Virus record (IMG/VR): IMGVR_UViG_3300033144_006348
Reading direction: 5' to 3' (one strand)
DNA from: a virus
Lineage: Duplodnaviria; Heunggongvirae; Uroviricota; Caudoviricetes
DNA length: 64,000 bases
Shown here one piece after another: positions 2,753 to 53,307 of the stretch. The position numbers were made by a program, and so were the translations under genes. The first letter of the stretch is position 1. Each line of letters begins with the position of its first letter. The notes beneath the pieces were generated by a model. That model had not been told where the DNA came from and did not search any database. It saw nothing but the letters and a program-made list of their open reading frames with translations.

Positions 2753-2880
2753 TCAGCTCCTTCTTTTATAATGGTCTACGCCGAACTACTTGAACTTCTA
2801 GAATTGTAGCTGTTCTAAAATTATCAAGTTTAAGAAATAAGTTCTATGTCTCCACATGCTCCAGCTAAATAGTTTAGAAT

Positions 2881-9986: not shown

Positions 9987-10406
9987 ATGGATACAAATGA
10001 TTATATAAAACTGTATAATCTAAAAGTAGATCCAAAAATTCCTCATCATTACATTATTGGTCTCGCTACACAACCAATATTAAGTAAAAATCCAGGTAAA
10101 ATATTTTTAAAGTATGGACCTATACATTTCACAAATGATGAGGTAGTAAGTATGTCAGAAGTAAACCAACTGATGTCAGATGAAATATTTAAAACAACTG
10201 CAAATGAAGCTATAAATAGTCGTGAGGTAGGAGAATTAATAGCTTCTATATCTGGACTATTTATGGTTGCTAGAATGAATGAAGCATCCCTTCATCATTT
10301 CTCTTCAGAATATATTATTACGGATGAATGGTTTGTATCTTTTATAGAAACGGCACATATGAAACATACAAAAAAACTTTTAGATGAGGCAAGAATAAGA
10401 CCATGA
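9987..10406 (+). CDS. Hypothetical protein (139 aa)
   Basis: Start moved from the track start 9879 to the ATG at 9987, preceded by AAAAAGGAGTG. This avoids overlap with the divergent gene. Confidence 0.45.
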   Translation: MDTNDYIKLYNLKVDPKIPHHYIIGLATQPILSKNPGKIFLKYGPIHFTNDEVVSMSEVNQLMSDEIFKTTANEAINSREVGELIASISGLFMVARMNEASLHHFSSEYIITDEWFVSFIETAHMKHTKKLLDEARIRP

Positions 10407-10900
10407 TAGGTTCTTTTACGGGTAAATATAAAGGGTTTAGTAATTTTGAGCCTGTTGTTATATATTATAAACATTATACCTTTCCTTCAGTTGAACATGC
10501 TTATCAGGCTTCAAAAGAATTGTATCCTGGTTATTATTTTTATAAAATATTAGCTGTTCCAGCAGGCGAAGCGAACATTGCAAGAAAGTTGGGAAGGAAA
10601 TCAAAGTTAAGACCTGATTGGGGTAAATTTAAATTGAAATCAATGGAAAAATTTTTAAGACAAAAGTTTGAATATAAAAAATTTAAAAATTTACTCATAT
10701 CTACAGGAGATGAAACTCTTGTAGAAGGTAACTGGTGGCATGATAATTTTTGGGGAGATTGCCACTGTAAAAAATGTAAAGACATAGAGGGACAAAATCA
10801 TTTAGGAAAAATTTTGATGCGGCTAAGGGAGGAATATAACACAAATCGTGAACGTAATAATAACCGGAGACATCCACGGGGAATTTGGACGTCTCAATGA
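10403..10900 (+). CDS. NADAR (YbiA/DUF1768) domain protein
   Basis: Motifs GKYKGFSNFEP, SVEHAYQASK and LVEGN..D.FWGDC match the NADAR family signature. Confidence 0.6.
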   Translation: MIGSFTGKYKGFSNFEPVVIYYKHYTFPSVEHAYQASKELYPGYYFYKILAVPAGEANIARKLGRKSKLRPDWGKFKLKSMEKFLRQKFEYKKFKNLLISTGDETLVEGNWWHDNFWGDCHCKKCKDIEGQNHLGKILMRLREEYNTNRERNNNRRHPRGIWTSQ

Positions 10901-11510
10901 CCTTATTAACAGAAAGAGAAAGTATTTAGATTTAGTAATATGCTGTGGTGATTTTGGATATTGGCCAAATCATCCATATGAACAGATCTCTAATATAAGA
11001 AATCATGGAATACCTATCTTATGGTGCGATGGAAATCATGAAGATCATTGGGCTTTAAGAGAAAGAGATACAGATGAGCTAGCTCCTAATGTATTCTATA
11101 TGCCGAGAGGAAGTACTTATACTTTAGACGATGGAAGAACAATTATGTTTATGGGTGGAGCTGATTCAATTGACAAGCATTCAAGAGTTTATGGAAGAGA
11201 CTGGTTCCCGGAAGAGATTATAACACAGAAAGACTTAATGCATCTTCCGGATATAAAAATTGATATTTTCATCACGCACACTTGTCCAGATGAAGTATAT
11301 CCTATCATGGTCAAATTCTATATTGGCAAAGAAATGGAGCCTTCTAATTATGCTCTAAGTGAACTATGGAAAATTTATAAGCCTGATTTGTGGTTTTTCG
11401 GGCATTGGCATTATTTTCATCATGGTAGTCTAGAAGATACCAAATGGTATGCTTTGAGCCATCCCGGTGAGGGAACTCGTTGGTGGATGTGGCTTCCAAA
11501 GCCTAACTGA
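10848..11510 (+). CDS. Calcineurin-like metallophosphoesterase
   Basis: Motifs GDIHG, CCGDFGY and GNHED are the phosphoesterase metal-binding motifs I, II and III. Confidence 0.6.
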   Translation: MNVIITGDIHGEFGRLNDLINRKRKYLDLVICCGDFGYWPNHPYEQISNIRNHGIPILWCDGNHEDHWALRERDTDELAPNVFYMPRGSTYTLDDGRTIMFMGGADSIDKHSRVYGRDWFPEEIITQKDLMHLPDIKIDIFITHTCPDEVYPIMVKFYIGKEMEPSNYALSELWKIYKPDLWFFGHWHYFHHGSLEDTKWYALSHPGEGTRWWMWLPKPN

Positions 11511-13800: not shown

Positions 13801-14631
13801 ATGAAGAATCACTTAATGATTGTTGATCCACAAAACTGTTTTTGCTTTCCAGGAGAGTCATTATATGTTACCAATGCTGACCGTGACATGTCCAATGTTG
13901 CAAAAATGATTATACGTCTTAATGAAAGAATATATGAGATTCACGTCACTCTCGACTCTCATCATCTCATTGATATAGCTCACCCCATTTTCTGGGTGAA
14001 CTCTCAAGGGACGGCTCCAGATCCCTTCACTATCATCACAAGAGACGATGTTTTGAATGGAGTCTGGATGCCAAGCATACCTGCTTATCTAAATCGAACG
14101 ACAATGAAAACAGCAGGTATAGATCGTGATGGAGTTGTAGAATATGTAACAACCCTTGAAAAAAATGGAAGATATCCTCTTTGTATCTGGCCTCCACATG
14201 GTCTTATAGGAAGCTTTGGTACACAAGTGTTTCAAGAACTTTTGGAAGCACTTTGGAAATGGGAAAAAGATAACTATGCAATGGTTAACTTTGTAACAAA
14301 AGGCTCGAATTTCATGACAGAACACTATTCGGCAGTTCAAGCAGATGTTCCCGATCCAGAAGACCCAAACACCCATTTAAATGAAGGTCTTATCGAAATT
14401 CTGAAAACAGCAGATGAAATCATATGGACTGGAGAAGCACTATCTCACTGTGTGGCTAATACAATAGAAGATATTGCCAATAACTTTGGAGAAGAAAACA
14501 TCAAAAGAATGATTCTTCTTATAGATGCCACTTCAAATGTTACAGGTTATGACCAGTTGGGTAAAGACCTTGTGAAAAAAATGGTTGGACGTGGGATGAG
14601 AACCTCAACAACAGTTGAGTATATGAAATGA
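13801..14631 (+). CDS. Isochorismatase-family cysteine hydrolase, nicotinamidase (PncA)-like
   Basis: IVDPQNCFCFPGESLYVTNA matches hhhDhQNDF..G.L.V of the family. LDSHHLIDIAHP is a metal-binding D-x-H..H motif. A candidate catalytic Cys lies in GEALSHCV. Confidence 0.45.
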   Translation: MKNHLMIVDPQNCFCFPGESLYVTNADRDMSNVAKMIIRLNERIYEIHVTLDSHHLIDIAHPIFWVNSQGTAPDPFTIITRDDVLNGVWMPSIPAYLNRTTMKTAGIDRDGVVEYVTTLEKNGRYPLCIWPPHGLIGSFGTQVFQELLEALWKWEKDNYAMVNFVTKGSNFMTEHYSAVQADVPDPEDPNTHLNEGLIEILKTADEIIWTGEALSHCVANTIEDIANNFGEENIKRMILLIDATSNVTGYDQLGKDLVKKMVGRGMRTSTTVEYMK

Positions 14632-15143
14632 AAACTGCAAAAGTCATAATGCACTGTAAGATATATACCGAAAGTTTTCCTGACTTTGATTATGAAGAAG
14701 GTGCCACTGGAGAGCAGATAATGGAATTTCTTCTTGATGATTGTGGTCAGGCCTTCAATTCTGGAGGAACTATAACACCGGGAGATTTAAATCTATGGTA
14801 TCTCGCAACTAATGAAAAACATGGTATCCTATCTATAAATGGATCAGAAGAAACATGGAAATGGGGAGAATCATCTTGGGAACGAGTTGAAGGTTTTGTT
14901 GAACTACTGAAAAAGTTTAAGGTTTTTTCAGAAGATCAGTACGATCTCATTATGGAAAAAATTAAGGAAGGTAAAGACAATTTTAATTTCATGTATGACA
15001 TTTCTAACTATTTAGAATCAAAAGAGCTTGGAACCCCTTGGCAGCATCCGGGTAATAAAGGTCGAGATGATTCTTTAAAGTTTTTTGGAAATATTATAAA
15101 AACATTAAAAGACGGAGGATATAAAACCGTATGCCCAGATTAG
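14628..15143 (+). CDS. Hypothetical protein (171 aa)
   Basis: ORF whose start overlaps the upstream stop by 4 nt. Confidence 0.4.
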   Translation: MKTAKVIMHCKIYTESFPDFDYEEGATGEQIMEFLLDDCGQAFNSGGTITPGDLNLWYLATNEKHGILSINGSEETWKWGESSWERVEGFVELLKKFKVFSEDQYDLIMEKIKEGKDNFNFMYDISNYLESKELGTPWQHPGNKGRDDSLKFFGNIIKTLKDGGYKTVCPD

Positions 15144-15901
15144 CACCAACAGACGACGAACAAATTATGACCATTCCTGGTGCAGGAAATATTCAATTCT
15201 CTGCGGTTCGTATGGACAAACTGGGAGCATCTCAGTACTCCCTTATCACAGTTGTTGCAGATAGATCAGGAAGTACCGAACCGTTTGAGAAATCTTTGAA
15301 TAAGCTTGCTCAAGCAGTAGTTGAAACATGCAACGACAAAAACAATCCCAGGAGAGAAAACCTACTTCTCCGGTATCTTATATTTAACGATACCATCACT
15401 GAAGTCCATGGCTTTAAGCTATTGTCATCAATAAACCCCGATGATTATGACTTATTAGAGTCTCGTGGAAGTACAGCTCTTTTTGGCGCAACAGATGATG
15501 CCGTTGGAGCAACATTGACACTGGCAGAAAGATTGATAAGCCAAGATTACGATGTCAATGGAGCTATATATATCATCACAGATGGTATGAATAACGTCTA
15601 CAGTTCTGCAACACCAGAAACAATTATGGACAGGATTAAAAACGCTCTTGGAAAAGAGACTATTATTGATTCTCTGCTAACAATTCTAATCGGACTCTAT
15701 GATCCTAAAATACCATGGAGTAATGAAACTAAAAAGGCTCTGGAAACCTTCAAAGATGATGCAGCCCTTGATGATTATATTGATGCTGGCGAAGCAACTC
15801 CAGAGAACCTTGCGAAAATATGCAACTATGTAAGTGGAAGTGTAAGTAGCGTCAGTCAAGGTCTACAGTCTGGCGTACAAAGTCAACCCTTAACATTTTA
15901 A
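15131..15901 (+). CDS. von Willebrand factor A (vWA) domain protein
   Basis: MIDAS-like ITVVADRSGST (DxSxS), then GSTALFGA and IITDG. Confidence 0.5.
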   Translation: MPRLAPTDDEQIMTIPGAGNIQFSAVRMDKLGASQYSLITVVADRSGSTEPFEKSLNKLAQAVVETCNDKNNPRRENLLLRYLIFNDTITEVHGFKLLSSINPDDYDLLESRGSTALFGATDDAVGATLTLAERLISQDYDVNGAIYIITDGMNNVYSSATPETIMDRIKNALGKETIIDSLLTILIGLYDPKIPWSNETKKALETFKDDAALDDYIDAGEATPENLAKICNYVSGSVSSVSQGLQSGVQSQPLTF

Positions 15902-17082: not shown

Positions 17083-17571
17083 GTGAAAATGGAAAACAGA
17101 AATAAAGGAATAATAAAACTCGCATTGGTTTTTATAGGGGTTATTTTATTTGCAACTGGTTTATATTTATTATGTAAACCAGACTGGGAATATGAAGTAA
17201 ACACTACAATTAAAGCTAAAATTCTAATATCAAGTATTAACAGGTTGGGTATTCAATACAATCTTGGTAATATTAATGTTCTTGATGACTGGCTCAACGG
17301 ATCACCCTCTTATGTTAAATATTTAGAAAATCTTAATAAAAAACACGGATATATTGAATTCGAGTTGAATGTTTATGACAAACACGGCAGAGTTGTAGAT
17401 CCTATATTTACCTACTATCTTCCTAATGGAGTAGAACTTTTTGCAAGTTATCAACCATTAAGAAAGCAACTTGTAAAAAACTACAAAACAATTCCAGGTT
17501 TCAGGTGGTTAATCAAAGACGGGAAAAAAGTTACTTATAAACCTACTATAAGAAGGGGGAATGCTCTGTGA
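17083..17571 (+). CDS. Membrane-anchored hypothetical protein (162 aa)
   Basis: N-terminal TM helix. RBS AAGGAGGTG. Confidence 0.4.
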   Translation: MKMENRNKGIIKLALVFIGVILFATGLYLLCKPDWEYEVNTTIKAKILISSINRLGIQYNLGNINVLDDWLNGSPSYVKYLENLNKKHGYIEFELNVYDKHGRVVDPIFTYYLPNGVELFASYQPLRKQLVKNYKTIPGFRWLIKDGKKVTYKPTIRRGNAL

Positions 17572-18401
17572 CAACCATTAGTTTAGATACTTTCTTAAAA
17601 ATTGGACACAACCACAAAATATGTGAAGACTACGTTTTATCCGGAATGACTCCTACTCCATATATCATCATATCTGATGGATGCTCATCTTCAACCAACA
17701 CTGAAATGGGAGCTCGATTACTATGTTATTTAGCAAAACAATTCATGGTTTTAAAAGATATTAAGTGTTCAACATATGAACAAATGGGAACATGGATAAT
17801 TAACAACGCTGAAATGACAGCAAGACAACTCGGATTAAATCCTTCTTCTTTAGATGCCACTCTTATCGTATCATATTATAATGAAACAACGAACGAAATC
17901 ATTACCAGATTTTATGGAGATGGATATCTTATTGGAATTTCAAAAAAAGATAAAGTAGTCATCTTTGGACAAAAATTCACAGATAATTATCCATATTATC
18001 TATCTAATAAGATTGATCCAAAAAGAGCTAATGCTTACCATAATATGAAAATAGATTTGATTCTATCAAATCTACTCTTTGGTGACGATACAGGAAAAAT
18101 AACATATTCTGTAAGAGCTTATGATTTTGAAAACCAGATCCATATGAATCTAAGTGATAACAAACTTATTATGATATGTTCCGATGGTCTAGAGTCATTT
18201 TACAATGAAAAAATACGCAGTGATAACCTTATAGAGGTGAAAGATTTGGTTTCAGACTTCACCAACTTTAAAAATACAACTGGAGTGTTTCTTCAAAGAA
18301 GAGTTGGCAAGGCAATAGAAAAATATGAAAAGCAAAATATCTTTCATTTTGATGATCTTTCAATGGGTACTTTTCTTATAGAGGAGGAACAAGAAGAATG
18401 A
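17568..18401 (+). CDS. PP2C-family (PPM) Ser/Thr phosphatase-like protein
   Basis: IIISDGCSSSTNTEMGA and MICSDGLESF resemble PPM metal-binding motifs (xxDGxGG and LLxSDGL). Confidence 0.4.
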   Translation: MTTISLDTFLKIGHNHKICEDYVLSGMTPTPYIIISDGCSSSTNTEMGARLLCYLAKQFMVLKDIKCSTYEQMGTWIINNAEMTARQLGLNPSSLDATLIVSYYNETTNEIITRFYGDGYLIGISKKDKVVIFGQKFTDNYPYYLSNKIDPKRANAYHNMKIDLILSNLLFGDDTGKITYSVRAYDFENQIHMNLSDNKLIMICSDGLESFYNEKIRSDNLIEVKDLVSDFTNFKNTTGVFLQRRVGKAIEKYEKQNIFHFDDLSMGTFLIEEEQEE

Positions 18402-20080
18402 TCTATCATGCAAATGGAAAAAAAGTAGTACTGACTGATCAGGATTTTGTATTCAAAGGAGGTCAAGCGAGAATCTATGAAAAAGGAAATGTAGCATATA
18501 AAATATACATAAATCAGTCAGATATGATTCCAGAAGCAAAAATTCAAGAGTTGCAGTGTCTAGATGATCTAAGAATTGTTAATCCACAACATGTTCTTTT
18601 TAACGAAAAAAAGAAGATGGTAGGATTTTCTATGGAGTGGTTGGGAAATGACTGTATTACTATCTGTAGACTCTTTACAAATACATTTAGAGAGGACAAT
18701 AATGTAGAAGACGATCAGGTAATAAAACTGGTTGAAAATATTAAAACTGGAACTATATCAGTTCATGGTAAAAAGTGCTTGATAGTCGATGGAAATGAAA
18801 TGAATTACATGGTTTCTCAAGACTTTATAACGCCACATTTCATTGATGTCGATTGTTATAAAACTCCAAGCTTTCCTCCCACAGCAATAACACCATCAAT
18901 CAGGGACTGGACAACCACAAAACTTTCAGAATTAACCGATTGGTTTTCATTTGCTGTAGTAACCTTTCAACTGTTCATTGGAATACATCCATTTAGGGGA
19001 GGGCATCCAGACTATTCTAAAAATGACTTTGAAAAGAGAGTTAAGGACTGCGTTTCTGTATTAAACTCCAAAGTTAGCTGTCCACCTCCCACAAGAGACT
19101 TTAATCTAATTCCTTCAGCATACAGAGATTGGTATTATGATTTATTTGAAAAAGGAAAAAGAACAGAACCACCTCTACTGCCAGGAGAAGCCGGAGTTGT
19201 TCAAGTTGAAGTCATCTTAATCAAAAGTACAGATAATTTTAAAATTGAGCTGATAAAGAAATTTGGGCAGACTATAAATTATTATCATGTTCTTCATGGG
19301 AATGAAATTGTTAAAACAAAAGGAAAAATTCATTTTAATGAAAAAGAATACAATGTAACACCAGATGTTGAATTTATGCTAACAATTCCAGAATTAGAAC
19401 CAATTCTTATCAAGATTGAAGACAGAAGAATTAAATTTCATTCTTTAAATGGATTAAAGATAAGAAATTTAGATATTAAGTGCTCAGATAAAATGATCAT
19501 TGACAACACATTATATCTAAAAAGTGGTGGAAAGTTGGTTCAAATAGCTATTGACAAATTCGGAAACACATTAGTTCCATCAGTAAACAAGGATTGGAAT
19601 ATTGGGCTTAAATCAAGTCATTTATTTTCAGGTTTGGTTTATCAAGATCTTTTAGGAAAAGTCTATTTTTCAATACCAGTACCTGGTAAAAAATCTCTAA
19701 TGTTATCATCAATTCATGAACTTGATGAATACAGAGTGGTGGATGCAAAACATGATAATATGGTATGTGTTGTAACTGCTACAAAAGGTGGAGTATATAC
19801 ACGCTTTATCATCATATTTGCGCCTGATTATAAATCCTACAAGTTCAGGACAATAGAAGATATTAATTACTCGCCTATTAACTTTGTGACTCTTGACAAT
19901 GGAATTTGTATAATGATAAATGACGACGATTCAATTGAGATATTCTCAAACCAAATTGATAAGGATTCAATTAAGAAAATTCAGGATCCTCAAATTAATT
20001 CATCAATGAGGTTATGCAAAGATGGAATGCGAGTTCTATTTTTCAAGGAGAATAAATTATTCTCAATAAAAATGAAATGA
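18398..20080 (+). CDS. Protein-kinase-like protein (560 aa), tentative
   Basis: N-terminal KGGQARIYEKGNVAYKIY resembles a Gly loop plus a VAxK lysine. LTDWFSFAVVTFQLFIGIHPF resembles kinase subdomain IX. Translationally coupled to the PP2C-like gene. Confidence 0.3.
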   Translation: MIYHANGKKVVLTDQDFVFKGGQARIYEKGNVAYKIYINQSDMIPEAKIQELQCLDDLRIVNPQHVLFNEKKKMVGFSMEWLGNDCITICRLFTNTFREDNNVEDDQVIKLVENIKTGTISVHGKKCLIVDGNEMNYMVSQDFITPHFIDVDCYKTPSFPPTAITPSIRDWTTTKLSELTDWFSFAVVTFQLFIGIHPFRGGHPDYSKNDFEKRVKDCVSVLNSKVSCPPPTRDFNLIPSAYRDWYYDLFEKGKRTEPPLLPGEAGVVQVEVILIKSTDNFKIELIKKFGQTINYYHVLHGNEIVKTKGKIHFNEKEYNVTPDVEFMLTIPELEPILIKIEDRRIKFHSLNGLKIRNLDIKCSDKMIIDNTLYLKSGGKLVQIAIDKFGNTLVPSVNKDWNIGLKSSHLFSGLVYQDLLGKVYFSIPVPGKKSLMLSSIHELDEYRVVDAKHDNMVCVVTATKGGVYTRFIIIFAPDYKSYKFRTIEDINYSPINFVTLDNGICIMINDDDSIEIFSNQIDKDSIKKIQDPQINSSMRLCKDGMRVLFFKENKLFSIKMK

Positions 20081-21574: not shown

Positions 21575-21590
21575 AGAATAGGGAAAAAAT

Positions 21591-21623
21591 AAATCCGAGT
21601 AATTTAATCGGATTTATTTTTTT
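21591..21623 (+). terminator. Intrinsic terminator
   Basis: Hairpin AAATCCGA-gtaatttaa-TCGGATTT followed by ATTTTTTT. Confidence 0.55.
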
Positions 21624-21723
21624 GGTTTGCAATCGTGACATTTACCACACGGATTCTTCTCTAAAGCTTCTAGGTAATCTTTCCAAATCTTTTTTATTTT
21701 TTTAATTATTTTTTTCATTTTTG

Positions 21724-21791: not shown

Positions 21792-22034
21792 ATGATTACA
21801 TGGCTTTTATTTCTGGTTGTTTGTGTTTATCAAGCTCTTGATGTCTGGCAAAGCTGGTGGTTGTTTCATTTTGGAGCCGGAGAATTAAATCCTCTTGTGG
21901 CTTTAGGAATAGAAGGTGGAGGAATAATGTTCGTAGTTTATCTTAAAACATTATTTACATTGCTACTTTTACTAGGAATCATAATTCAAAAACGAAAAGA
22001 AAAGGAGAAAAAAAATGGAATGGGACAAGATTAA
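21792..22034 (+). CDS. Small membrane protein (two TM helices, holin-like topology), function unknown
   Basis: ATG 21792 after AAGGAGGTTAAA. Downstream of the TTTGTTCTATATATATTAATAA promoter-like motif. Confidence 0.35.
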   Translation: MITWLLFLVVCVYQALDVWQSWWLFHFGAGELNPLVALGIEGGGIMFVVYLKTLFTLLLLLGIIIQKRKEKEKKNGMGQD

Positions 22035-22365
22035 ACTTTCAATTTCAGAGTTTACAAATGCGTTTGTTATTCAGATATTATCTCAAGATATGAGTTATTC
22101 AAACCGAGTTACGAAAGAAGGCTTAGTGAATTTTGATGGATGGCGTATAGAATGTCAGAATAATCCTATGTTATATCCCTCAGAAAAAAAAATATTCCTT
22201 AGAGGTAGAAACCGGGGAGGACATTATAAATTGCTCATTTATGAAGGAGAACACAATCACGCTGTACTAGAAGAGGTCTTGAGAGCAATTAAACTATGGG
22301 CAAAAGCCTTAGACAAAAAAACCCTGTCAGAAAAAGGAGAAAAATGTTACGAAATATCTTTCTAA
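22015..22365 (+). CDS. Hypothetical protein (116 aa)
   Basis: ORF with RBS GGAGAAAAAAATG. Confidence 0.35.
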   Translation: MEWDKIKLSISEFTNAFVIQILSQDMSYSNRVTKEGLVNFDGWRIECQNNPMLYPSEKKIFLRGRNRGGHYKLLIYEGEHNHAVLEEVLRAIKLWAKALDKKTLSEKGEKCYEISF

Positions 22366-22534
22366 GGAGGTGAAATGAATATGCGATGAGACATAGACCT
22401 GAAATTCTAAAAAAATATTCCTTCAATCCATCACGTCAACCCAGCCGTCCTACCGTTTTCGATAAGCTGGATATAAAATCATATATAGATAACCTATTCT
22501 TACAACTATAAATCCCTATTAAGGAGGTAAAAAA

Positions 22535-23197
22535 ATGACAGAGGAAGTACAAGAATGCACAGTATATGCAGAAATTAACGGAACAAATTACGTTATAGAT
22601 AAATATGAAGGAATTTTGATTAACGCGGAAGATGAAACTATAACCTTTAAGATAGATGTGACTCCATACTGCCTCAAATGTAACGATCTTATGGAATTCT
22701 ATCATACAATTGACGAGAAATATGATCGGTATAGTTGTCCTAATCCTTGTAGAGAAGACAGATGGGTTCTAAAGGAGTTCACTCCGAGGACGATAGACGC
22801 TGAAGTAATTAATCCAGATTATGAATATATCGACCCTGTTGAAATGATCAATAGGTTAGAGGGTATGGGATCTTGTATTGCACACAGTACTTGGGACCCT
22901 TTTGATCTACGTCTATTTCTGGAATTTATTACAGCATCAGAATTACATTATTTCTATTTTGTCAAGGTTTTGGTGATGTATAAAAATGATTCAGATGTCT
23001 TTGTTTCCGGATCATGTATCCATAACATAGCAATGAATAGGTATCAGCCTTATAAAGACAGATCGGATTATCAAGGAAATCACCATATAGACCAAAAATA
23101 TGTCTTTAACTCAAAACATTATCCCAGACCCCCTCGCCCTATTATGCCGCCACATCAAGTTGATAATTATATTGAGTCTCTATTTAGTAGTATGTAG
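22535..23197 (+). CDS. Paralog A of a duplicated 220-230 aa Cys-containing protein family
   Basis: Shares NGTNYVIDKYEG..CLKCNDLMEFYHTIDEKYDRYSCPNPCREDRWVLKEFTPR.. with 23964..24656. RBS AAGGAGGTAAAAAAATG. Confidence 0.5.
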   Translation: MTEEVQECTVYAEINGTNYVIDKYEGILINAEDETITFKIDVTPYCLKCNDLMEFYHTIDEKYDRYSCPNPCREDRWVLKEFTPRTIDAEVINPDYEYIDPVEMINRLEGMGSCIAHSTWDPFDLRLFLEFITASELHYFYFVKVLVMYKNDSDVFVSGSCIHNIAMNRYQPYKDRSDYQGNHHIDQKYVFNSKHYPRPPRPIMPPHQVDNYIESLFSSM

Positions 23198-23221
23198 AGA
23201 TTCACAAAAAAGAGGTCTCTG

Positions 23222-23425
23222 ATGGTGAAAACCGATAAAATATGTCCAGGATGTTTAGATGTATGTGCTTGGTTTTTCTATGGTACACTTCAAGCACATC
23301 AGATTAGAAAAATGAAATCATGCCCATGTGGATATTGTATTGTCAAGGCTATGTGCTGGGACAACCAGGATTGTATTCTTTTTAGAGAAAATTTTAAATA
23401 TAAGGTTGGAGATCAATTAAAATGA
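23222..23425 (+). CDS. Cys-rich zinc-ribbon mini-protein, double CxxC type (C-x2-C..CPCGYCIVKAMC)
   Basis: Member of the recurrent P-C-x2-C-[IL]-V family. Tandem with 23422 and 23625. Confidence 0.45.
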   Translation: MVKTDKICPGCLDVCAWFFYGTLQAHQIRKMKSCPCGYCIVKAMCWDNQDCILFRENFKYKVGDQLK

Positions 23426-23628
23426 TAAATAAATCAGATGAACCTTGTGGTGGTTGTTCAATGAGATGTGCGTGGATTATGTTTAGACAACTTCAAGAAT
23501 ATCAGACCAAAAAGATGAAAACATGTCCATGTGGATACTGCATTGTCATGTCAATGTGCAAAAGTAAAAATACTTGCATTCTTTTTCAGGAGAATTTTAA
23601 ATATAAGGTTGGAGATCAAGTAGAATGA
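23422..23628 (+). CDS. Cys-rich zinc-ribbon mini-protein (MINKSDEPCGGC..CPCGYCIVMSMC)
   Basis: Paralog of 23222. Start overlaps the upstream stop (ATGA). Confidence 0.45.
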   Translation: MINKSDEPCGGCSMRCAWIMFRQLQEYQTKKMKTCPCGYCIVMSMCKSKNTCILFQENFKYKVGDQVE

Positions 23629-23858
23629 TAAATGAATCAGATGAACCCTGTGATGGTTGTTTATTATTATGTAATTGGTGGCATGGTTACTATAATAAAA
23701 CGGATGTAAAACTAACTCCTTATGCTCTTAAAAAAATGAAAGAGTGCCCCTGTGAATACTGTTTAGTAAAAGTAATGTGTAAAAAATTTAAGTGTATTTT
23801 ATTTGTTGAACATTTTGAAAACAGAACAGGACAGACTTCCATTTGGAGAAAGAAGTAA
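23625..23858 (+). CDS. Cys-rich zinc-ribbon mini-protein (MINESDEPCDGC..CPCEYCLVKVMC)
   Basis: Paralog of the two preceding mini-proteins. Confidence 0.45.
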   Translation: MINESDEPCDGCLLLCNWWHGYYNKTDVKLTPYALKKMKECPCEYCLVKVMCKKFKCILFVEHFENRTGQTSIWRKK

Positions 23859-23963
23859 TGGCAGCAATAAGACGATGGGCGTTAATATTAGAAGATAAAC
23901 CGTGCAATATTCAGAAATTAGATAAGTATTACAAGGTAAGTTATTAAAAATAATCACTAGGAG

Positions 23964-24656
23964 GTGAAACAAATGAGCGAGGAAATACCTGACCTTATGG
24001 AATTAATTGACATCAATGGAATATCTTATACCATTGACCCAAAAACAAATACTCTACATCACTCATTAGACACAGATATAAAATATGACCTAAATAAAAC
24101 TCCAGTATGTATGGCATGTAAAAAAATTATGAACTTCTACCATGCGGTTGATACAATATATGATCGGTATGATTGTCCATGCGGAGAGGATAGGTGGAGC
24201 ATATTACGAGAGTTCACACCGAGAGGGGAGAAGGTTGAGGAAGATATTAAGGAAGATCTCGATTGTAATCATCGGAGATTTACACCAGAAGAAATGTTCT
24301 TAAAGTTGGAGGAAATGGCGGTCTGTGTATCTAGAGGCTTATGGGACTCGAGAGACTTGAAAATATATCTAGAGTTTATCACATATTCAGACCAACATTT
24401 CTATTACTATATAGAATGTTTGAATCTGTTCCTTCGTAATTCAGATGTCTTTGTTGCATCAACAGCTATCCATATCCTGGCGGCGGCTAGATACCCCCCG
24501 TATGGTTCAAGACTGAAATTTCAAGAAGACTACAAAACTGCTATAGCCAGTGTGTATACTTTCGACCCACAAAATTATGATACACATAATCGTCCGGAAT
24601 TAGCAACTGGACAAGTTAATACATATGTGAGGGATCTATTTGATCTAATGGTGTAA
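23964..24656 (+). CDS. Paralog A' of the duplicated 220-230 aa family (see 22535..23197)
   Basis: NGISYTIDPKTN..CMACKKIMNFYHAVDTIYDRYDCPCGEDRWSILREFTPR aligns with paralog A. RBS AGGAGGTGAAACAAATG. Confidence 0.5.
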   Translation: MKQMSEEIPDLMELIDINGISYTIDPKTNTLHHSLDTDIKYDLNKTPVCMACKKIMNFYHAVDTIYDRYDCPCGEDRWSILREFTPRGEKVEEDIKEDLDCNHRRFTPEEMFLKLEEMAVCVSRGLWDSRDLKIYLEFITYSDQHFYYYIECLNLFLRNSDVFVASTAIHILAAARYPPYGSRLKFQEDYKTAIASVYTFDPQNYDTHNRPELATGQVNTYVRDLFDLMV

Positions 24657-24883
24657 TGGAGGTTCAAATGAACAACAAAGACCCATGTTTCGGTTGTCAT
24701 ACTAACAAGATATGTGAAATAAGAAATTTTCTCATCATTAAAAACTTCGAGATGATATTGGAAGTCTGCCCCTGTATAGAGTGCATTGTAAAACCTTCAT
24801 GTATGAAAGATTGTGATAGGAGGGGTCAATTTTCAAGTTTATTTAGTAAAACTCATTTTGGAGAAATATTTTTCAGTAAGTGA
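24656..24883 (+). CDS. Cys-rich zinc-ribbon mini-protein (CFGCH..CPCIECIVKPSC)
   Basis: Family motif present. Start overlaps the stop of 23964..24656. Confidence 0.4.
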   Translation: MEVQMNNKDPCFGCHTNKICEIRNFLIIKNFEMILEVCPCIECIVKPSCMKDCDRRGQFSSLFSKTHFGEIFFSK

Positions 24884-24926
24884 AGGAAAGAAATAAATGA
24901 CATCTGAAGTATGCTAGGGACATAAG

Positions 24927-25106
24927 ATGAAAAGAATAAAAAATGAAATCTGTCATTTCAGTTGCTATTGGAAGAATAGAATTGGAGAATGTACATATCT
25001 CCAATTCTATTCTAAGAAAAATCAATGCCCATGTATTGTTTGTATAGTTAAAGTCATGTGTCAAAAACCATGTGATATCCAATATAAATGGCGTCTTAAT
25101 TTTTGA
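24927..25106 (+). CDS. Cys-rich zinc-ribbon mini-protein, 59 aa, below the ORF-track size cutoff (..CHFSC..CPCIVCIVKVMCQKPC)
   Basis: Hand-translated. Carries the family core motif. Sits in the gap between 24883 and 25121. Confidence 0.35.
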   Translation: MKRIKNEICHFSCYWKNRIGECTYLQFYSKKNQCPCIVCIVKVMCQKPCDIQYKWRLNF

Positions 25107-25120
25107 AAGGAAATAAACGA

Positions 25121-25579
25121 ATGAGAGAACTACCAAAAAAACCACCACACCAAATTGATGGAGACCCCCATAATTTGTACCCAACACATACACATGGTCT
25201 TGAACAGGTTGGGTTACCAGAGATGTTTATCAATGGAAAAGCTTTCGGAAACGTTGATAATGCTAATATGCTTAACTATATTGTTGCATATCTTTATCTC
25301 AATGAATCAGAATGGGAAAGATGTGTTAAGGGCGAAGATATGGAAATAACTCTATATGAAGATCCCTCCGATCCAGTCTTTTGTTTAAGAAAAGTTGATC
25401 GAAAGTTTTCTGGAGTTACAACTTCATATTATCACGAAGATCTTAATTGTATAACCGGTTTTCGACAGTTATATGTGAAGGGAGATGATCATGTTTTAAC
25501 AGATGAGTACTTTCTTGAAGAAAACAGAAAATCTAAGATGACAGAGTGTGGCCCTGGTTGCTCAGGGTATGATAAATAA
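25121..25579 (+). CDS. Hypothetical protein (152 aa)
   Basis: ATG 25121 after GAAAGGA. The track start 25103 is a TTG. Confidence 0.4.
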   Translation: MRELPKKPPHQIDGDPHNLYPTHTHGLEQVGLPEMFINGKAFGNVDNANMLNYIVAYLYLNESEWERCVKGEDMEITLYEDPSDPVFCLRKVDRKFSGVTTSYYHEDLNCITGFRQLYVKGDDHVLTDEYFLEENRKSKMTECGPGCSGYDK

Positions 25580-25805
25580 ATTAGATGAACCCTGTGATGG
25601 TTGTTTAATTACATGTGCTTGGTGGAATAATATCTATGATAGTAACATTAAAATAAAACTAACTCCTTACGCTCTTGAAAAAATGAAAACATGTCCATGT
25701 TCATATTGTTTAGTAAAAATGATGTGTAATAGGATAAAATGCGATTTATTTCCTGAGCATTTTAAAAACATAACAGGATCGAAATCTATTATAATCATGA
25801 GTTAA
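25569..25805 (+). CDS. Cys-rich zinc-ribbon mini-protein (MINKLDEPCDGC..CPCSYCLVKMMC)
   Basis: Internal ATG 25569 gives the MINKLDEPC N-terminus shared with 23422 and 23625. A terminator follows. Confidence 0.45.
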   Translation: MINKLDEPCDGCLITCAWWNNIYDSNIKIKLTPYALEKMKTCPCSYCLVKMMCNRIKCDLFPEHFKNITGSKSIIIMS

Positions 25806-25821
25806 AGATAAGTCAGCGGAA

Positions 25822-25862
25822 AATAACCCTAGAAGGATTACTCCAACTAGGGTTATTTTTTT
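25822..25862. terminator. Terminator at the convergent junction between the plus block and the capsid-gene block (likely bidirectional)
   Basis: Hairpin ATAACCCTAG-aaggattactccaa-CTAGGGTTAT followed by TTTTTTTT. Confidence 0.55.
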
Positions 25863-25866: not shown

Positions 25867-27393
25867 TTATTTTCTCAATTCTGAGCTTGAGGCTGAGCAA
25901 TCCACACCAGAACCTTCTGGTCCACATGGAATATTACCACAGTTATTAGTGATACTAAGAGTAGCAATACCTGCACTTCTAATCAATGCTGTCGCATATC
26001 TTGACAGGATTGTTAGACTTGGAGTGAATCCTAGTGGATATGGATGCAGAACAGCTGGTACATAAGGACTATATACATAAATAGCCTTTAGTTCCTCAAC
26101 TGGTTTGTATACCATTACCATTGTGCCTTGTGTTACAACTGCTGATGTTAGAACTTTCCATTTTCCACCAGCTACTGTAGCACTTCTATATCCCAGGTCT
26201 CCATCAACTGAAGATGTTCCTGTATAATTAAACGTCTGTAAATCTTCAAGGATAGCAACATCTAGTGGGTTCGCTAGAATTGTATTTCCAGCTTCAATGT
26301 TAGTATCAGTGTAAATTTGTCCAGATAGTCTGTTCAGGACAGGGATAATGTTTTCATGCCAGTATTTGGTTCCCCAAGTATACGTTACAGGGGGGGTACA
26401 AGAGAATGTGTCTGTATGACAGATATTATTCAGTCTTGTATTTGCGGTAATAAGAGCATTGATAATTTCTCTATCAATATCTAGCGCCACTTGCTGTCCT
26501 AGAATATTTACTATTTCAGCTTGCATTGAGATATCAAACAGAGCTCTCATGTCTTGCTCCATGTTGATTGTCCAGTTTGCAGAGATCTGGCGGTCTCTAG
26601 CATATAGACGAATCTTTTCAACTGATAGTTCAACTCTTGGGTTGATTTGGTTTTCTTCTAGTGAAGTAGTTACTGTGAAACGAGCGTACAGTACAGTTCC
26701 TACTGTGCTGGAAATGACAACTGTTCCATTTAGATAATCTACTTGACCAGAAACAACATCTGCAACTCCACCGATGCTTACACTTGATGAAAAGTGACCT
26801 TCAACAGCAGGTACGATACAAACATCTGTAAAATGAGTTCCGTCAGCCGAAACAGCGTCAATTTCAAAGTCTCTCTCGAGATGTGCTTGAGCGGGTACTA
26901 GTCCTGCTGTAGCAAGTACGTCATAACCGCTGCTTGGTACAGGCATTATAGCTGCAACCTGTGTTCCAAATGCGACACCCTGTGAAATGTCAGGTGTAAT
27001 AACAGGAGCATTATATTGCAAATCGCTATTTGATGGACTAAATTTTGCTTTAACAAACGCTTTAACTGTTTCTGGTTTATCCATTGGTGAAACAGTAATA
27101 GCTTCTTTGGCAACTAGTTTCGGATAGAACACACGAAGAATAGGCAGAGTCAGTGTTTCATACGGGTTGATCTGAAACATTGAATTTTCAAGCAGATTCA
27201 CTCTAGTATTTTCTGCTAGTTGAATAAAATCTTTTCTGTCTTTCTTATTCTCAATAGATTCGGCCAGGCCAGTTACATATGTTTCAAAGGCAGCATCATC
27301 AACAAGAATAGCTTTTAAATTACCGGGCTTTGATGGGTCTATTCCACTGATTTTTTTAGTGGTTCTATAGACTTCGGTCAGTAATTCTTTCAT
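25867..27393 (-). CDS. Putative major capsid protein (508 aa)
   Basis: Large protein at the end of the head-gene block. Strong RBS GGAGGAAAATAATTATG on the minus strand. The bidirectional terminator lies downstream. Assignment is by size and position, with no motif evidence. Confidence 0.45.
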   Translation of the reverse strand: MKELLTEVYRTTKKISGIDPSKPGNLKAILVDDAAFETYVTGLAESIENKKDRKDFIQLAENTRVNLLENSMFQINPYETLTLPILRVFYPKLVAKEAITVSPMDKPETVKAFVKAKFSPSNSDLQYNAPVITPDISQGVAFGTQVAAIMPVPSSGYDVLATAGLVPAQAHLERDFEIDAVSADGTHFTDVCIVPAVEGHFSSSVSIGGVADVVSGQVDYLNGTVVISSTVGTVLYARFTVTTSLEENQINPRVELSVEKIRLYARDRQISANWTINMEQDMRALFDISMQAEIVNILGQQVALDIDREIINALITANTRLNNICHTDTFSCTPPVTYTWGTKYWHENIIPVLNRLSGQIYTDTNIEAGNTILANPLDVAILEDLQTFNYTGTSSVDGDLGYRSATVAGGKWKVLTSAVVTQGTMVMVYKPVEELKAIYVYSPYVPAVLHPYPLGFTPSLTILSRYATALIRSAGIATLSITNNCGNIPCGPEGSGVDCSASSSELRK

Positions 27394-37475: not shown

Positions 37476-37694
37476 TTATTCTTCCCCCTTAATTAGTTTC
37501 CCATTTTCTTTTAAGACCTCATTAGCTATATTATACTGATCTTCCTCACTAAATTTACTAATATCAAGATATGAAATCAGATGATTTATAAAGTCGTCAC
37601 AAGATTCTTTGCACATTCCTCTAACTATGCATGTTTTACAAGGAGTGGGATGTTTAATTGAAGTATTAAATTCATCAAGTCTTTTATAGATCAT
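37476..37694 (-). CDS. Cys-rich zinc-ribbon mini-protein of the P-C-x2-C-I-V family (PCKTCIVRGMCKESC), encoded in the replication block
   Basis: Same core motif as the tRNA-array mini-proteins. Confidence 0.4.
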   Translation of the reverse strand: MIYKRLDEFNTSIKHPTPCKTCIVRGMCKESCDDFINHLISYLDISKFSEEDQYNIANEVLKENGKLIKGEE

Positions 37695-39079
37695 ACTGTT
37701 AATACCCTTTTTCTTTCATCAAGTTCTACAAATTCATCTTTTGCTAAAACTTTATTGATAAGATACTCACAATAATCTTCATCAAGATTGGTTAACATAT
37801 CCAACGATCTTGCTATACTGAAAGACTTAATCTTTTGTTTTTTTGTTATTTTTCCTTGGTTAAGAATGCTTGTAGCATGGAGGCAAGATTGATGAAATTC
37901 TTCTATTTCTCCATTTACATATAATGGATAAATATCGCCTGCGTAATCTCGCAACCACCCTTGAATTTCAGAAAATAAAAGGATTGGATAAAATAAAGTA
38001 AGATAAATTTTTAAATCTTCATTATATGTATTGGTTTCATCATTATATATTCTATCAACATCAATTCGTTTGAAGTTGAGAGTATCTGCTACATGATCAA
38101 CTAACCTCTGTGCAGCATCAATACATCTTTCTCCTTTGTAGAATCTTTTATCAATATCGGCAGACTTAAGGCTCATTTTCCTAACATATCCATCACCATC
38201 TTTAACATGAATATATCTTGCCATTTGACTTTGCTTATAAGGACCAGATGAATCATAAGTCATATTCAATTTAATTTTATGCTTATCCCAAACAATTTTA
38301 GTAAAAAATTCATAGAATAAAATATCTCTCCAGTTTGCACCTCCTAAAATATGGAAGTTGAGAAAGTCTCTATTATATTTTTTACATTCATTTAAGAGCG
38401 GGATTAATGGAAGGACATAGATAATACAGGGGATAGACATATCAGTAGCCATATTAGCTACTATACCACCTGTTCCATGTGATTGAAAATAAGGAAATAG
38501 TTCATTGTCTCTCATGATTCGAGTATATATATCCCAAAGTTTAGGAGTTCTAAAATGATGAATATATACAATTTTATCACGAACTACTTTTGGAAGGTCT
38601 CTTGCTTGTGTGTATGACTCTAAATTGAGTTTATAAACATCGTAGAAATTATGGAATATTTTACATCCGGGTCCAGGTGGAATATCTAAAATAAAAGCTT
38701 TGGCAAATAACTCATGATTATTTTTCAACCATTCATAATACATTTTAAATAAATTCTCTGATCTTTCTCTGGAAAATCGACCAGTAGATATTTGAAACCC
38801 GCCGCTATCAACATAAAAATCACATTTATCAAATATACCCATCTCTATACACTGATTAAACATTCGGGTTTCATTTATATCATGTTTTTCAAGTTTCTTT
38901 TTCTTATCGAAGTTTTGTCCATATGAGTGAAGAAAACCAGAGCAAGTAGTCGACAAAAATTTCGCTACATCTGCCCTAGTAAAGTTATCATGAAATTGTC
39001 CTCTTTCTCCCTTAATAAATCTATCAACAATGCCTGCTAAGGTTTCAAATCCAGCAAGGATATAACCACTTCTAACCAT
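37691..39079 (-). CDS. tRNA-guanine transglycosylase superfamily protein, DpdA-like (candidate DNA 7-deazaguanine transglycosylase)
   Basis: FYVDSGGFQIS matches the TGT catalytic-region signature TDSGGFQ. 462 aa with no obvious Zn-binding C-terminal motif, consistent with the DpdA-type branch. QueE-like gene nearby. Confidence 0.45.
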   Translation of the reverse strand: MVRSGYILAGFETLAGIVDRFIKGERGQFHDNFTRADVAKFLSTTCSGFLHSYGQNFDKKKKLEKHDINETRMFNQCIEMGIFDKCDFYVDSGGFQISTGRFSRERSENLFKMYYEWLKNNHELFAKAFILDIPPGPGCKIFHNFYDVYKLNLESYTQARDLPKVVRDKIVYIHHFRTPKLWDIYTRIMRDNELFPYFQSHGTGGIVANMATDMSIPCIIYVLPLIPLLNECKKYNRDFLNFHILGGANWRDILFYEFFTKIVWDKHKIKLNMTYDSSGPYKQSQMARYIHVKDGDGYVRKMSLKSADIDKRFYKGERCIDAAQRLVDHVADTLNFKRIDVDRIYNDETNTYNEDLKIYLTLFYPILLFSEIQGWLRDYAGDIYPLYVNGEIEEFHQSCLHATSILNQGKITKKQKIKSFSIARSLDMLTNLDEDYCEYLINKVLAKDEFVELDERKRVLTV

Positions 39080-50303: not shown

Positions 50304-50381
50304 CGGGGTGTAGCTCAGTCTGAGTAGAGCGCTCGGTTTGGGGCCGAGGTGTCGGAGGTTCGAATCCTCTTACCCCGACCA
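50304..50381 (+). tRNA. tRNA-Pro (anticodon TGG)
   Basis: Hand-folded cloverleaf. Acceptor CGGGGTG/TACCCCG, anticodon loop TTTGGGG, T-loop TTCGAAT, A discriminator, encoded CCA. Confidence 0.8.
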
Positions 50382-50422
50382 TTTTAGAAGTAAACTAAAA
50401 CAGTGAAAGGGAGAATTAGTGA

Positions 50423-50698: not shown

Positions 50699-50706
50699 AG
50701 ATGAGT

Positions 50707-50791: not shown

Positions 50792-50822
50792 TTTTTAATT
50801 CACGAATTGCGAAAGGAGTATT

Positions 50823-52680: not shown

Positions 52681-52681
52681 T

Positions 52682-52758: not shown

Positions 52759-52776
52759 TTTATGAAAGGAGAATCA

Positions 52777-53301: not shown

Positions 53302-53307
53302 TTTAAT

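Follow-up and report, generated by a model that had tools for sequence, protein, structure and literature searches.

Birth-and-death evolution of orphan genes, among them eight-cysteine mini-proteins, in an apparent accessory cassette of a T4-like phage

In the window, the 64,000-nucleotide stretch of viral DNA analyzed as a whole, a series of small orphan ORFs at about 21.7-25.8 kb appears to form an accessory operon of ~4.1 kb on the + strand, within the plastic periphery of the genome (Table 1). Because gene relics were found at two places between the intact genes, the layout reads p116, d-large, L1, m1, m2, m3, d-p116, L2, m4, m5, p158 and m6. The window thus contains three large-family genes (two intact and one truncated), two p116-family genes (one intact and one truncated), and six genes for mini-proteins (minis) that fall into three subclades. 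All of the ORFs named in an earlier note on this DNA were present on the + strand.

Table 1 Features of the cassette and its edges, with coordinates in the window
Feature	Coordinates	Strand	Description	Remarks
I3	21583..21623	.	A-run/hairpin/T-run, inverted repeat	RNA fold -16.7 kcal/mol, z=-5.2 vs shuffles
Membrane protein	21792..22034	+	small, 80 aa, DUF5658-like; heads the operon	synteny shared with relatives
p116	22015..22365	+	orphan protein, 116 aa; part of repeated cassette	homologues in L001, L046
d-large	22374..22511	+	relic of a third large-family gene, 5'-truncated: final ~45 codons	large HMM positions 176-220
L1	22535..23197	+	acidic two-domain large protein, 220 aa	L2 paralog; strong Shine-Dalgarno
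m1	23222..23425	+	eight-Cys mini, 67 aa, beta clade	78% DNA identity with m2 over 196 nt
m2	23422..23628	+	eight-Cys mini, 68 aa, beta clade	4-nt ATGA start/stop overlap with m1
m3	23625..23858	+	eight-Cys mini, 77 aa, beta clade	4-nt ATGA start/stop overlap with m2; nearest paralog m6
d-p116	23846..23947	+	relic of a second p116-family gene: final ~33 codons	immediately 5' of L2
L2	23973..24656	+	acidic large protein, 227 aa (230 from GTG 23964)	L1 paralog; ATG 23973
m4 (mini-alpha)	24668..24883	+	eight-Cys mini, 71 aa (75 aa from ATG 24656)	conserved adjacency to clade-B large genes
m5	24927..25106	+	eight-Cys mini, 59 aa, C-x3-C variant, separate subclade	Cys-column alignment
I6	24973..25013	.	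perfect 16-bp hairpin within the m5 coding region, inverted repeat	-21.9 kcal/mol, z=-7.0
p158	25121..25579	+	acidic orphan, 152 aa (158 from TTG 25103)	pI 5.0
m6	25569..25805	+	eight-Cys mini, 78 aa, beta clade, dispersed copy	3' of p158
I7	25819..25862	.	strong hairpin with A-/T-runs at its sides, inverted repeat	-25.1 kcal/mol, z=-5.4

The phage is uncultivated and, judged by its sequence, belongs to a distant T4-like lineage with a T4-type core. A Gp23-type capsid protein, a T4-type Gp20 portal, a prohead protease and a DnaB-type helicase are present, and a gp43-like PolB and a UDG are fused in one gene. Its genome measures only about 80 kb, and its capsid, portal, protease and PolB-UDG proteins are only 24-27% identical to those of cultured T4-like phages. 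The cassette is placed between core modules. NADAR, metallophosphoesterase, SPFH and PP2C genes are encoded within its + strand block, the NADAR and phosphoesterase genes upstream of it, and at 50-62 kb of the window small ORFs are interspersed in a tRNA cluster.

The hairpins I3 and I7 are the putative boundaries of the operon. I3 is terminator-like in both directions and would end transcription at the upstream boundary, and I7, which sits between the converging m6 and major-capsid genes, is proposed to do so at the downstream one. The first gene of the operon, whose ATG at 21792 is preceded by the Shine-Dalgarno site AAGGAGGT, encodes a membrane protein 57% identical to a homologue in the related contig L001 (256-489), which itself has a weak PF18902 match; contig L046 encodes a further homologue. 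The p116 protein has a homologue of 33% identity in L001 (3742-4098, E=2e-14) and two copies in L046, on either side of a large-gene stub and mini-alpha; searches of Pfam, PHROG and NCBIfam gave no match to it. The p158 protein is 66% identical to its counterpart in L001 (3278-3745), is unrelated to L1 and L2, and showed only a sub-threshold similarity to DUF4261 (Pfam, E=0.011). At E<=1 nothing above noise was found in PHROGs and NCBIfam for L1, L2, the six minis, p116 and p158, or in PADLOC for L1, L2, the six minis and p158.

L1 and L2 are paralogs, as the earlier note had claimed: the proteins align end to end with 85 of 228 positions identical (37%, E=6e-55), and both peptide strings quoted from them are present. 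At the DNA level the self-similarity of the locus is extended only in the minis (77-78%); in L1 and L2 it comes down to one common stretch of 63 nt at 73%. Both genes are preceded by strong Shine-Dalgarno sites, and the 227-aa form of L2 is that of JGI gene call P0001. In the AF2 model of L1 (pLDDT 78.5), residues 9-79 contain strands and residues 101-219 helices, giving a beta-rich N-terminal domain with four Cys and a six-helix C-terminal domain; Cys46, Cys49, Cys68 and Cys72 are conserved. No match to the large family was found in Pfam, PHROG, NCBIfam, PADLOC or PDB sequences, nor any significant fold match or enzyme homology, and the WWE domain (PF02825) might serve as a lead for the N-terminal beta domain.

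Each of the six minis has exactly eight Cys, and in their alignment the Cys columns are invariant. Chance likeness is excluded by hmmsearch E-values of 1e-14 to 5e-17 for the six (225 short ORFs of the region). The minis contain the CxxC motifs C9-x2-C12 and C37-x2-C40 and four more invariant Cys at C-x-C, x5 and x3-7 spacings. The N-terminal C-x2-C that had been described as an extra pair is present, but the extension adds four Cys in all: the two of the C-x2-C, one more, and the Cys that opens the CPC. In m5 the C-x2-C is replaced by C-x3-C. The start of m4 is most likely ATG 24668 (MNNKDPCFGC); JGI call P0011 and the L001 orthologue agree on it, and GGAGGT lies just upstream. Orthologues of m4 are in L001 (1939-2166, 55% amino-acid and 71% DNA identity) and in L046 (P0015). 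For m6, the start at ATG 25569 yields MINKLDEPCDGC, like m2 and m3, in place of the frame from GTG 25548 first reported. The m3 and m6 proteins are 61-63% identical (DNA 77% over 210 nt). Among paralog pairs dN/dS ranged from 0.26 to 0.68, and such overall purifying selection (dN/dS<1) is by itself no sign of an arms race. The AF2 model of a mini (pLDDT 54.5) was too poor for a fold reading.

Across an alignment of 36 sequences, from the window and other contigs, all eight Cys are invariant, with a mean column identity of only 18%. The invariant or near-invariant columns are the eight Cys, one Pro and one Lys, giving the pattern C-x2-C...C...C-P-C-x2-C-[ILV]-V-K-x2-C-x3-7-C. In a classical zinc ribbon, two CxxC/CPxC knuckles on beta-hairpins jointly bind one Zn. 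No Pfam family of any kind, zinc ribbons included, matched the six window minis (E<=1) or the 36 members (E<=0.1); PHROG, NCBIfam, PADLOC and fold searches gave no significant match to the family either. These minis appear to be a previously undescribed family, found so far on viral-looking contigs only, whose arrays in other viruses reach about 25 genes. Arrays of about 10-25 genes were seen on at least five further viral contigs: 25 HMM hits within 11.5 kb adjoining a T4-like terminase in L024, 22 in L011, 16 in L026+L031, 15 in L041+L043, and 10 in L013.

The earlier note had explained the locus as a tandem duplication of a whole module. Duplication of a multi-gene unit is indicated by the two relics, which were detected at E=3e-5 (d-large, large HMM) and E=3.3e-5 (d-p116, p116 HMM positions 88-121) among 225 short ORFs, each assignment being based on 33-45 residues. 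In local alignment to p116 the d-p116 relic has a Smith-Waterman score of 55 against 22.4+/-4.0 for shuffles and is co-terminal at the stop codon; it is also similar to the C-terminus of p116-a in L046. Both relics are co-terminal. Judged by them, the repeated unit was roughly p116, a large gene and minis, and the sequence supports an old duplication of this cassette followed by divergence. It does not look like a simple en-bloc copy, because the minis behind L1 belong to the beta clade and those behind L2 to other subclades (the alpha clade and that of m5), and because extended DNA similarity within the locus is confined to the minis (m1/m2 and m3/m6). Each of these subclades has its own orthologue behind a single large gene in L001, so the present strings arose mainly by mini-only tandem duplication, and these duplications are the youngest events.

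Copy differences were also found between strains and lineages. In strain contig L007, which is 99.66% identical to the window, the frame of the d-large relic is open up to the contig end, and eight of the ten SNPs, together with a loss of homology, fall at 22372-22419. This near-identical strain differs exactly at the d-large relic, which is a strain-level breakpoint. Decay of the cassette in contigs L046-L049 was independent of that in the window. The locus thus combines the tandem paralogs, truncated copies, strain and lineage differences and accessory position of a plastic-region multigene family, and its three orphan gene types (p116, the acidic large proteins and the basic eight-Cys minis) are under birth-and-death evolution.

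The earlier note had also treated the large protein and its minis as one functional unit. Taken strictly, this would be an obligate hetero-oligomer in which a large scaffold and its own Zn-ribbon minis were duplicated en bloc and are now sub-functionalising, a reading that we consider unlikely. The linkage it requires is partly conserved: in the window and L001-L003 mini-alpha comes after a clade-B large gene at an intergenic gap of <=11 nt, a clade-A large gene has minis on its flanks in L004/L005, and in L011 the array of 22 minis starts right behind a free-standing homologue of the large C-domain. The cassette duplication recorded by the relics would fit as well, as would the opposite charges of the large proteins (pI 4.8) and the minis (pI 8.4-9.3, except m4 at 7.5). 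However, jackhmmer detected no large-family domain in the 6-14 kb retrieved around each of the arrays of L024, L026/L031, L041/L043 and L013. Further, m6 lies behind the unrelated p158, L008 has a C-domain homologue with no minis nearby, the L1 and L2 minis are of different subclades, and in L046-L049 (four samples) an intact mini-alpha adjoins a large gene of which a 37-position N-terminal stub is left, although L048 comes from the same sample as L004 and the two are possibly one genome. A dedicated obligate partner of the minis is thus not supported by these comparisons. The neighbourhood of large-family domain and minis does recur in three contig groups (window/L001, L004 and L011), so functional coupling may exceed our own estimate.

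The arrays that occur without a large protein also bear on a RiPP-like cluster, in which the large protein would modify or recognise the minis as Cys-rich precursor peptides. The architecture, a larger ORF with several small Cys-rich ones behind it, is only superficially alike; the Cys are conserved over the full mini length with no leader/core split, and neither a radical-SAM, YcaO or lanthipeptide-type enzyme nor enzyme homology or a fold match of the large protein was found, which makes this reading scarcely credible.

A further proposal, that the minis are iron-sulfur proteins with two [4Fe-4S] clusters and a redox or sensor role suited to hosts in anoxic sediment, draws on the eight invariant Cys in 59-78 aa, on the C37-x2-C40-x5-C46-x3(-7)-C spacing, and on source samples that look like sediment metagenomes by their sample ids, a putative habitat. 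The motif C-x2-C-x5-C-x3-C resembles that of SPASM/twitch clusters, and its C-x2-C-x5-C part that of WhiB-like (Wbl) proteins. All mini members have the Wbl pattern C-xn-C-x2-C-x5-C, and most end with the x3 spacer of SPASM (x5 in the window beta clade). However, SPASM (PF13186), Fer4 and Whib (PF02467) matched neither the six minis (E<=1) nor the 36 members (E<=0.1). The GxWGG motif was absent from the alignment, so that the Wbl combination of PF02467, G[VI]WGG turn and basic tail was not found, and the minis stand alone rather than being fused to or paired with a radical-SAM protein, the only one in the window being 16 kb away (41584-42270). The final Cys spacer varies from x3 to x7. An electron-transfer role sits uneasily with dozens of divergent paralogs in each genome, and we regard the proposal as quite improbable.

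Reshuffling by the minis' own mobility, as miniature PacI/HNH-like selfish nucleases, has an analogue in the Opia viruses of Atabeyarchaeia, whose Cys-rich proteins reach 197 aa, are HNH/PacI-like, contain H, DR and CxxCN residues and are encoded by sequential, combinatorial genes within a hypervariable hot spot that differs between otherwise near-identical genotypes (bioRxiv 10.1101/2024.03.22.586370). Like that set, the cassette has runs of small Cys-rich genes, two predicted four-Cys sites (eight invariant Cys would fit the two Cys4 sites of the PacI type) and a strain-variable viral location. Unlike the Opia proteins, compared here by their description, the minis have no conserved catalytic residue, with His, Asp and Asn invariant in none of the 36 sequences, and at 59-78 aa have roughly half the length of PacI (142 aa, PDB entry 3M7K; bioRxiv 10.1101/2024.03.22.586370). 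No HNH Pfam match was found, and a profile run against the whole set of PDB sequences at E<=10, expected to cover 3M7K, gave a single, unrelated match (E=0.12). With the catalytic residues (His, Asp-Arg, Asn; beta-beta-alpha-metal) not conserved, the nuclease reading is largely refuted and very improbable.

On balance the locus is somewhat better explained than not as a birth-and-death accessory cassette of a distant T4-like phage, in which diversified, basic, metal-binding minis are accompanied by an acidic possible partner. The repeated p116 and large paralogs may serve as direct repeats at which unequal recombination produces duplications and deletions. The eight Cys most probably form two Zn(Cys)4 sites (alternatively two Fe-S clusters), and each mini would be a non-enzymatic scaffold displaying variable loops and tails, the family forming a diversified set of binders for host takeover or counter-defence. 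In the window lineage the acidic large proteins may be binding partners or helpers of the basic minis, with no such need in the family overall. A bolder joint reading, to which we give rather little credence, would make the minis an undescribed virus-restricted metal-scaffold fold, a library of up to ~25 variable-loop binders in phages and possibly archaeal viruses, with the large protein as dedicated adaptor and its N-terminal domain perhaps a WWE-like ADP-ribose reader tied to the NADAR/phosphoesterase genes. If true, the minis would be a combinatorial counter-defence or host-takeover arsenal.

One of the closest settings is that of the hyperplastic (plastic-periphery) regions in the T4 phage superfamily, such as those Comeau et al. 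reportedly described in 2007: the cassette likewise consists of small orphan ORFs between core modules of T4 type and varies between near-identical strains. Unlike those regions, it is dominated by paralogs of one Cys-scaffold family, and a unit of several genes in it has been duplicated and has left relics. P2 Ogr/Delta and Mu Com are small phage zinc-finger regulators, single-copy and with a single Cys4 site. The minis resemble them in being basic, phage-encoded, ~60-80 aa long and probably metal-binding through Cys, but differ in their eight Cys, multiple copies and lack of a Pfam match. The ASFV MGF110 and poxvirus host-range families evolve by tandem duplication and loss, and resemble the cassette in having paralogs in tandem, some of them truncated, in copy numbers that differ between strains, and in an accessory location. 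Those are eukaryotic viruses and the folds are unrelated, whereas the cassette belongs to a prokaryotic virus, and its unit is much smaller and Cys-scaffolded.

The large and mini ORFs are, as far as sequence can tell, genuine coding genes and not chance ORFs. All of the ORFs listed in the earlier note were present on the + strand, homologues were predicted as genes in several independent metagenomes, and dN/dS for pairs of mini paralogs was 0.26-0.68. The two acidic large proteins, L1 and L2, had been described as paralogs, and pairwise alignment bore this out over their full length (85 of 228 identical, 37%; E=6e-55). Each of the six minis (m1 to m6) has eight cysteines, which form invariant columns in the alignment. 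By kind, the cassette belongs with the multigene families of plastic regions in T4-superfamily phages.

A JGI contig of ~80 kb contains the window. The virus is tailed, and its T4-type core includes a Gp23-family capsid protein, a T4-type portal, a prohead protease, a DnaB-type helicase, and a gp43-like DNA polymerase. Identity between these core proteins and their counterparts in cultured T4-like phages was just 24-27%, and no nucleotide similarity to known phages was found in the phage collection searched. The cassette is the 3' end of a + strand block that also holds NADAR, metallophosphoesterase, SPFH and PP2C phosphatase genes, which indicates that this is an accessory or host-interaction block. 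The NADAR and metallophosphoesterase genes may be an ADP-ribose-processing pair, with possible relevance to a weak WWE-like lead for the large proteins. The orphan 560-aa ORF that begins within the PP2C-like gene had no match in Pfam, PHROG or PADLOC.

Two strong hairpins with flanking A-/T-runs enclose a unit of ~4.1 kb, in which the genes overlap or are closely spaced. L1 and L2 have strong AAGGAGG-type Shine-Dalgarno sites and the minis weaker ones. Scans for consensus promoters and terminators gave no excess over shuffled expectation. Directly upstream of the operon, a short candidate ORF overlaps the 3' arm of the first hairpin and extends ~95 nt past it. A perfect inverted repeat within m5 encodes the variable loop of that mini; no T-run follows the repeat, whose possible roles include recombination, RNA processing and attenuation.

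Coordinates of the cassette and of other features of the window
Feature	Position	Strand	Remarks
Accessory block	9.9-25.8 kb	+	cassette at 3' end
NADAR-domain gene and calcineurin-like metallophosphoesterase gene	10403-11510	+	overlapping; NADAR E=1.7e-20
171-aa ORF	14628-15143		homologue on L008
Strict-regex 'eight-Cys' match	15458-15676	-	antisense inside ORF 15131-15901
PP2C-like phosphatase gene	17568-18401	+	overlaps start of 560-aa ORF
560-aa orphan ORF	18398-20080
Hairpin	21583-21623		z=-5.2
Candidate ORF	21614-21718	-	34 aa, Lys-rich; C-terminus CGKCHDC
p116	22015-22365		116 aa
Breakpoint against L007	22372-22419
d-large	22374-22508		45-codon relic, immediately upstream of L1
L1	22535-23197	+
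m1, m2, m3	23222, 23422, 23625	+
d-p116	23846-23944		relic, immediately upstream of L2
L2	23964/23973-24656	+
m4, m5	24656/24668, 24927	+
Inverted repeat	24973-25013		16 bp, 9-nt loop; -21.9 kcal/mol, z=-7.0
m6	25569	+
Hairpin	25819-25862		z=-5.4
Gp23-family capsid protein	25867-27393	-
Four-Cys-only ORF	37479-37715	-	example
Weak queuine-tRNA-ribosyltransferase-like protein	37691-39079		candidate nucleotide/DNA-modification gene
Thymidylate-synthase-like protein	39858-40661		candidate nucleotide/DNA-modification gene
Radical-SAM protein	41584-42270		candidate nucleotide/DNA-modification gene
gp43-like family-B DNA polymerase (PolB)	42287-45550		N-terminal uracil-DNA-glycosylase-superfamily (UDG) domain, residues 46-183
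DnaJ CXXCXGXG zinc-finger domain protein	46168-46806
Eleven tRNA genes	50304-62202		Pro, Leu x3, Thr, Arg, Gln, Met, Ser x2, Val
Four-Cys-only ORFs	51053, 53985, 54920, 55167, 55412, 58804, 60322, 62694		examples
Three consecutive four-Cys ORFs	54920-55711		C-terminal hydrophobic segment

The region had also been read as two copies of one module, a large gene followed by a string of minis. Duplication holds, and two truncated relics show that the unit duplicated was larger. The large-family HMM matched the d-large frame (E=3e-5 among 225 short ORFs) over HMM positions 176-220, the C-terminus. An HMM built from p116, an orphan protein of the cassette, and its homologue on contig L001 matched d-p116 (E=3.3e-5) over positions 88-121, also the C-terminus, and the match ends together with a stop codon. 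BLASTP and blastp-short both failed to detect this second relic, which was recovered only by the HMM and by shuffle-tested local alignment (score 55 versus 22.4+/-4.0 for shuffles). With the relics, the layout becomes DUF5658-like gene, p116, d-large, L1, m1, m2, m3, d-p116, L2, m4, m5, p158 (another orphan), m6. A 2,978-bp contig from another sample (L007), 99.66% identical to the window, differs exactly at the d-large relic, where 8 of the 10 SNPs and then a total loss of homology are found. The d-large frame of L007 is open up to the contig end, and this near-identical strain may, on its partial sequence, still have a longer third large gene.

Self-comparison of the DNA, suggested in the earlier note, revealed extended similarity among the minis only (m1/m2 78%, m3/m6 77%), while L1 and L2 share merely 63 nt at 73%. 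The beta clade of minis consists of m1-m3 (behind L1), m6 and the beta mini of L001; the alpha clade consists of m4, the alpha mini of L001 and the homologue P0015, and m5 is separate. L001 has just one clade-B large gene, with alpha behind it and beta behind alpha, and this order indicates that the mini strings of the window are not two copies of one string. The youngest events are therefore duplications of minis, one of which placed a copy behind p158. As the relics show, a unit of p116 and a large gene (plus minis) was duplicated earlier and is decaying now. A related phage, found in four samples (L046-L049), shares its gene order with the window, starting at the 180-aa gene. Its layout is p116-a, a large stub limited to HMM positions 3-37, mini-alpha and p116-b; the stub indicates that decay occurred independently in that lineage. 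The flanking p116 paralogs would act as direct repeats for unequal recombination. Among the minis of L001 there is also a gene (2399-3058) whose 219-aa product, without a counterpart in the window, shows an HExxH-like motif (HETYHLLGCGH) and, at its N-terminus, a lipoprotein-like signal.

An alignment of 36 minis, from the window and other contigs, gave the pattern C-x2-C-x(3-15)-C-x(10-25)-C-P-C-x2-C-[ILV]-V-K-x2-C-x(3-7)-C. The eight Cys are invariant and the Pro and Lys near-invariant, mean column identity is 18%, and the Cys2-Cys3 loop, the Cys3-Cys4 loop and the C-terminal tails vary widely. A word-indexed search with this profile added few minis. Minis and large family alike gave only sub-threshold noise against Pfam, PHROGs, NCBIfam and PADLOC, and PDB sequence profile searches returned one unrelated match each (E=0.12 for the minis and E=0.3). 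Both families are orphans in every library tested, with clear sequence signatures. The AF2 model of a mini is unreliable (pLDDT 54.5). A common origin of the mini N-terminal half and the CxxC...CPC site of the large proteins was rejected (hhalign probability about 1%). The C-terminal four-Cys unit, P-C-x2-C-[ILV]-V-x3-C-x3-5-C, is found by itself in further small ORFs of the window, some with a C-terminal hydrophobic segment resembling a transmembrane helix, so that the eight-Cys type is a two-site elaboration of a smaller module. The tRNA genes alternate with many small ORFs, several bearing the four-Cys core only. The antisense 'eight-Cys' match, absent from the mini-HMM matches, was treated as chance.

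Scanning DNA with a degenerate pattern for the core, and scoring the matches by HMM, revealed mini arrays elsewhere. There were 25 HMM hits in 11.5 kb next to a T4-like terminase on an 88.9-kb IMG/VR contig (L024), 22 on a Thorarchaeota-binned contig (L011, JBHLRM010000005.1), 16 on a Thermoplasmatales-binned contig (L026/L031, DAOVGR010000034/22), 15 on an Aenigmatarchaeota-binned contig (L041/L043, JAAOXY010000082.1), and 10 on a Logan assembly contig (L013). To our knowledge, few small-protein families of prokaryotic viruses form tandem arrays as long as these. Searches by jackhmmer with either large-protein domain found no homologue in the stretches of L013, L024, L026, L031, L041 and L043 that were analysed. 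The long-array contigs L011, L026/L031/L039 and L041/L043 are binned in MAGs of three archaeal phyla. These contigs look viral (small-ORF runs, RNA ligase, ATP-dependent DNA ligase) and are either mis-binned viruses or archaeal viruses. The window has T4-like core genes and a DnaB-type helicase.

The large family is extremely rare, with six members in a word-indexed search of 5.8 billion proteins and 8 matches (E<=1e-3) when 1.84 billion cluster representatives were searched exhaustively with HMMER. No further loci were found in IMG/VR, and a metagenome scan returned only L001 and L005, both already found. In a neighbor-joining tree, L1 and L2 share a clade with L001-B, and a second clade holds L001-A, P0004 and P0005. 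The AF2 model of L1 (pLDDT 78.5) predicts two domains: a beta-rich N-terminal domain (residues 9-79) with conserved Cys46/49/68/72 and the motif YDRYDCPCGEDRW-LKEFTPR, and a C-terminal domain of six helices (residues 101-219, pLDDT about 90). Foldseek found no match to this model in BFVD or PDB at E<=0.001. P0020 and P0021 carry the N-domain fused to zinc-ribbon repeats, and P0022, P0023 and L011 7433-7813 have the C-domain by itself. L008, another contig with a stand-alone C-domain homologue, also encodes (650-1225) a protein 41% identical to the 171-aa ORF of the window, indicating that the two viruses have other accessory genes in common.

Each mini most likely holds two Zn(Cys)4 sites. Two Fe-S clusters may be present instead, since the core cysteines are spaced as in SPASM domains (C-x2-C-x5-C-x3-C), a spacing that also contains the C-x2-C-x5-C of Wbl proteins, though homology to either group was tested and not found. 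The lack of invariant residues beyond Cys, Pro and Lys favours a structural metal scaffold over an enzyme and, together with the variable loops and tails, favours a binder. The minis would then be small, basic, metal-stabilised binders that diversify through duplication and that the phage expresses from an accessory operon to take over the host or counter its defences.

The proposal that a large protein and its minis form a functional unit survives in a looser form. The acidic large proteins may be partners of the basic minis, given that the neighbourhood recurs in three contig groups, the genes are tightly spaced and the charges are complementary. Evidence against an obligate partnership comes from mini arrays with no large gene in the stretches searched, from the large stub of L046, and from m6, which lies behind an unrelated gene.

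Gene birth and death have left a compact natural record at this locus: copies that are still intact, two relics, a breakpoint between strains and an orthologous locus that decayed independently survive here or in relatives. This record is unusually clear and the array sizes are striking; the function is putative. The locus could help in studying how diversity is generated in phage accessory regions. If the minis are true variable-loop binders or counter-defence factors, they would offer a new supply of small binding scaffolds stabilised by metal and would mark a poorly known clade of sediment viruses; otherwise, this would be an ordinary plastic-region paralog cluster. The closest published parallel to the mini cassette is in the Opia viruses, where a hot spot encodes sequential Cys-rich proteins with double zinc sites (bioRxiv 10.1101/2024.03.22.586370). 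Those proteins are described as HNH/PacI-like, whereas the minis have no catalytic residues.
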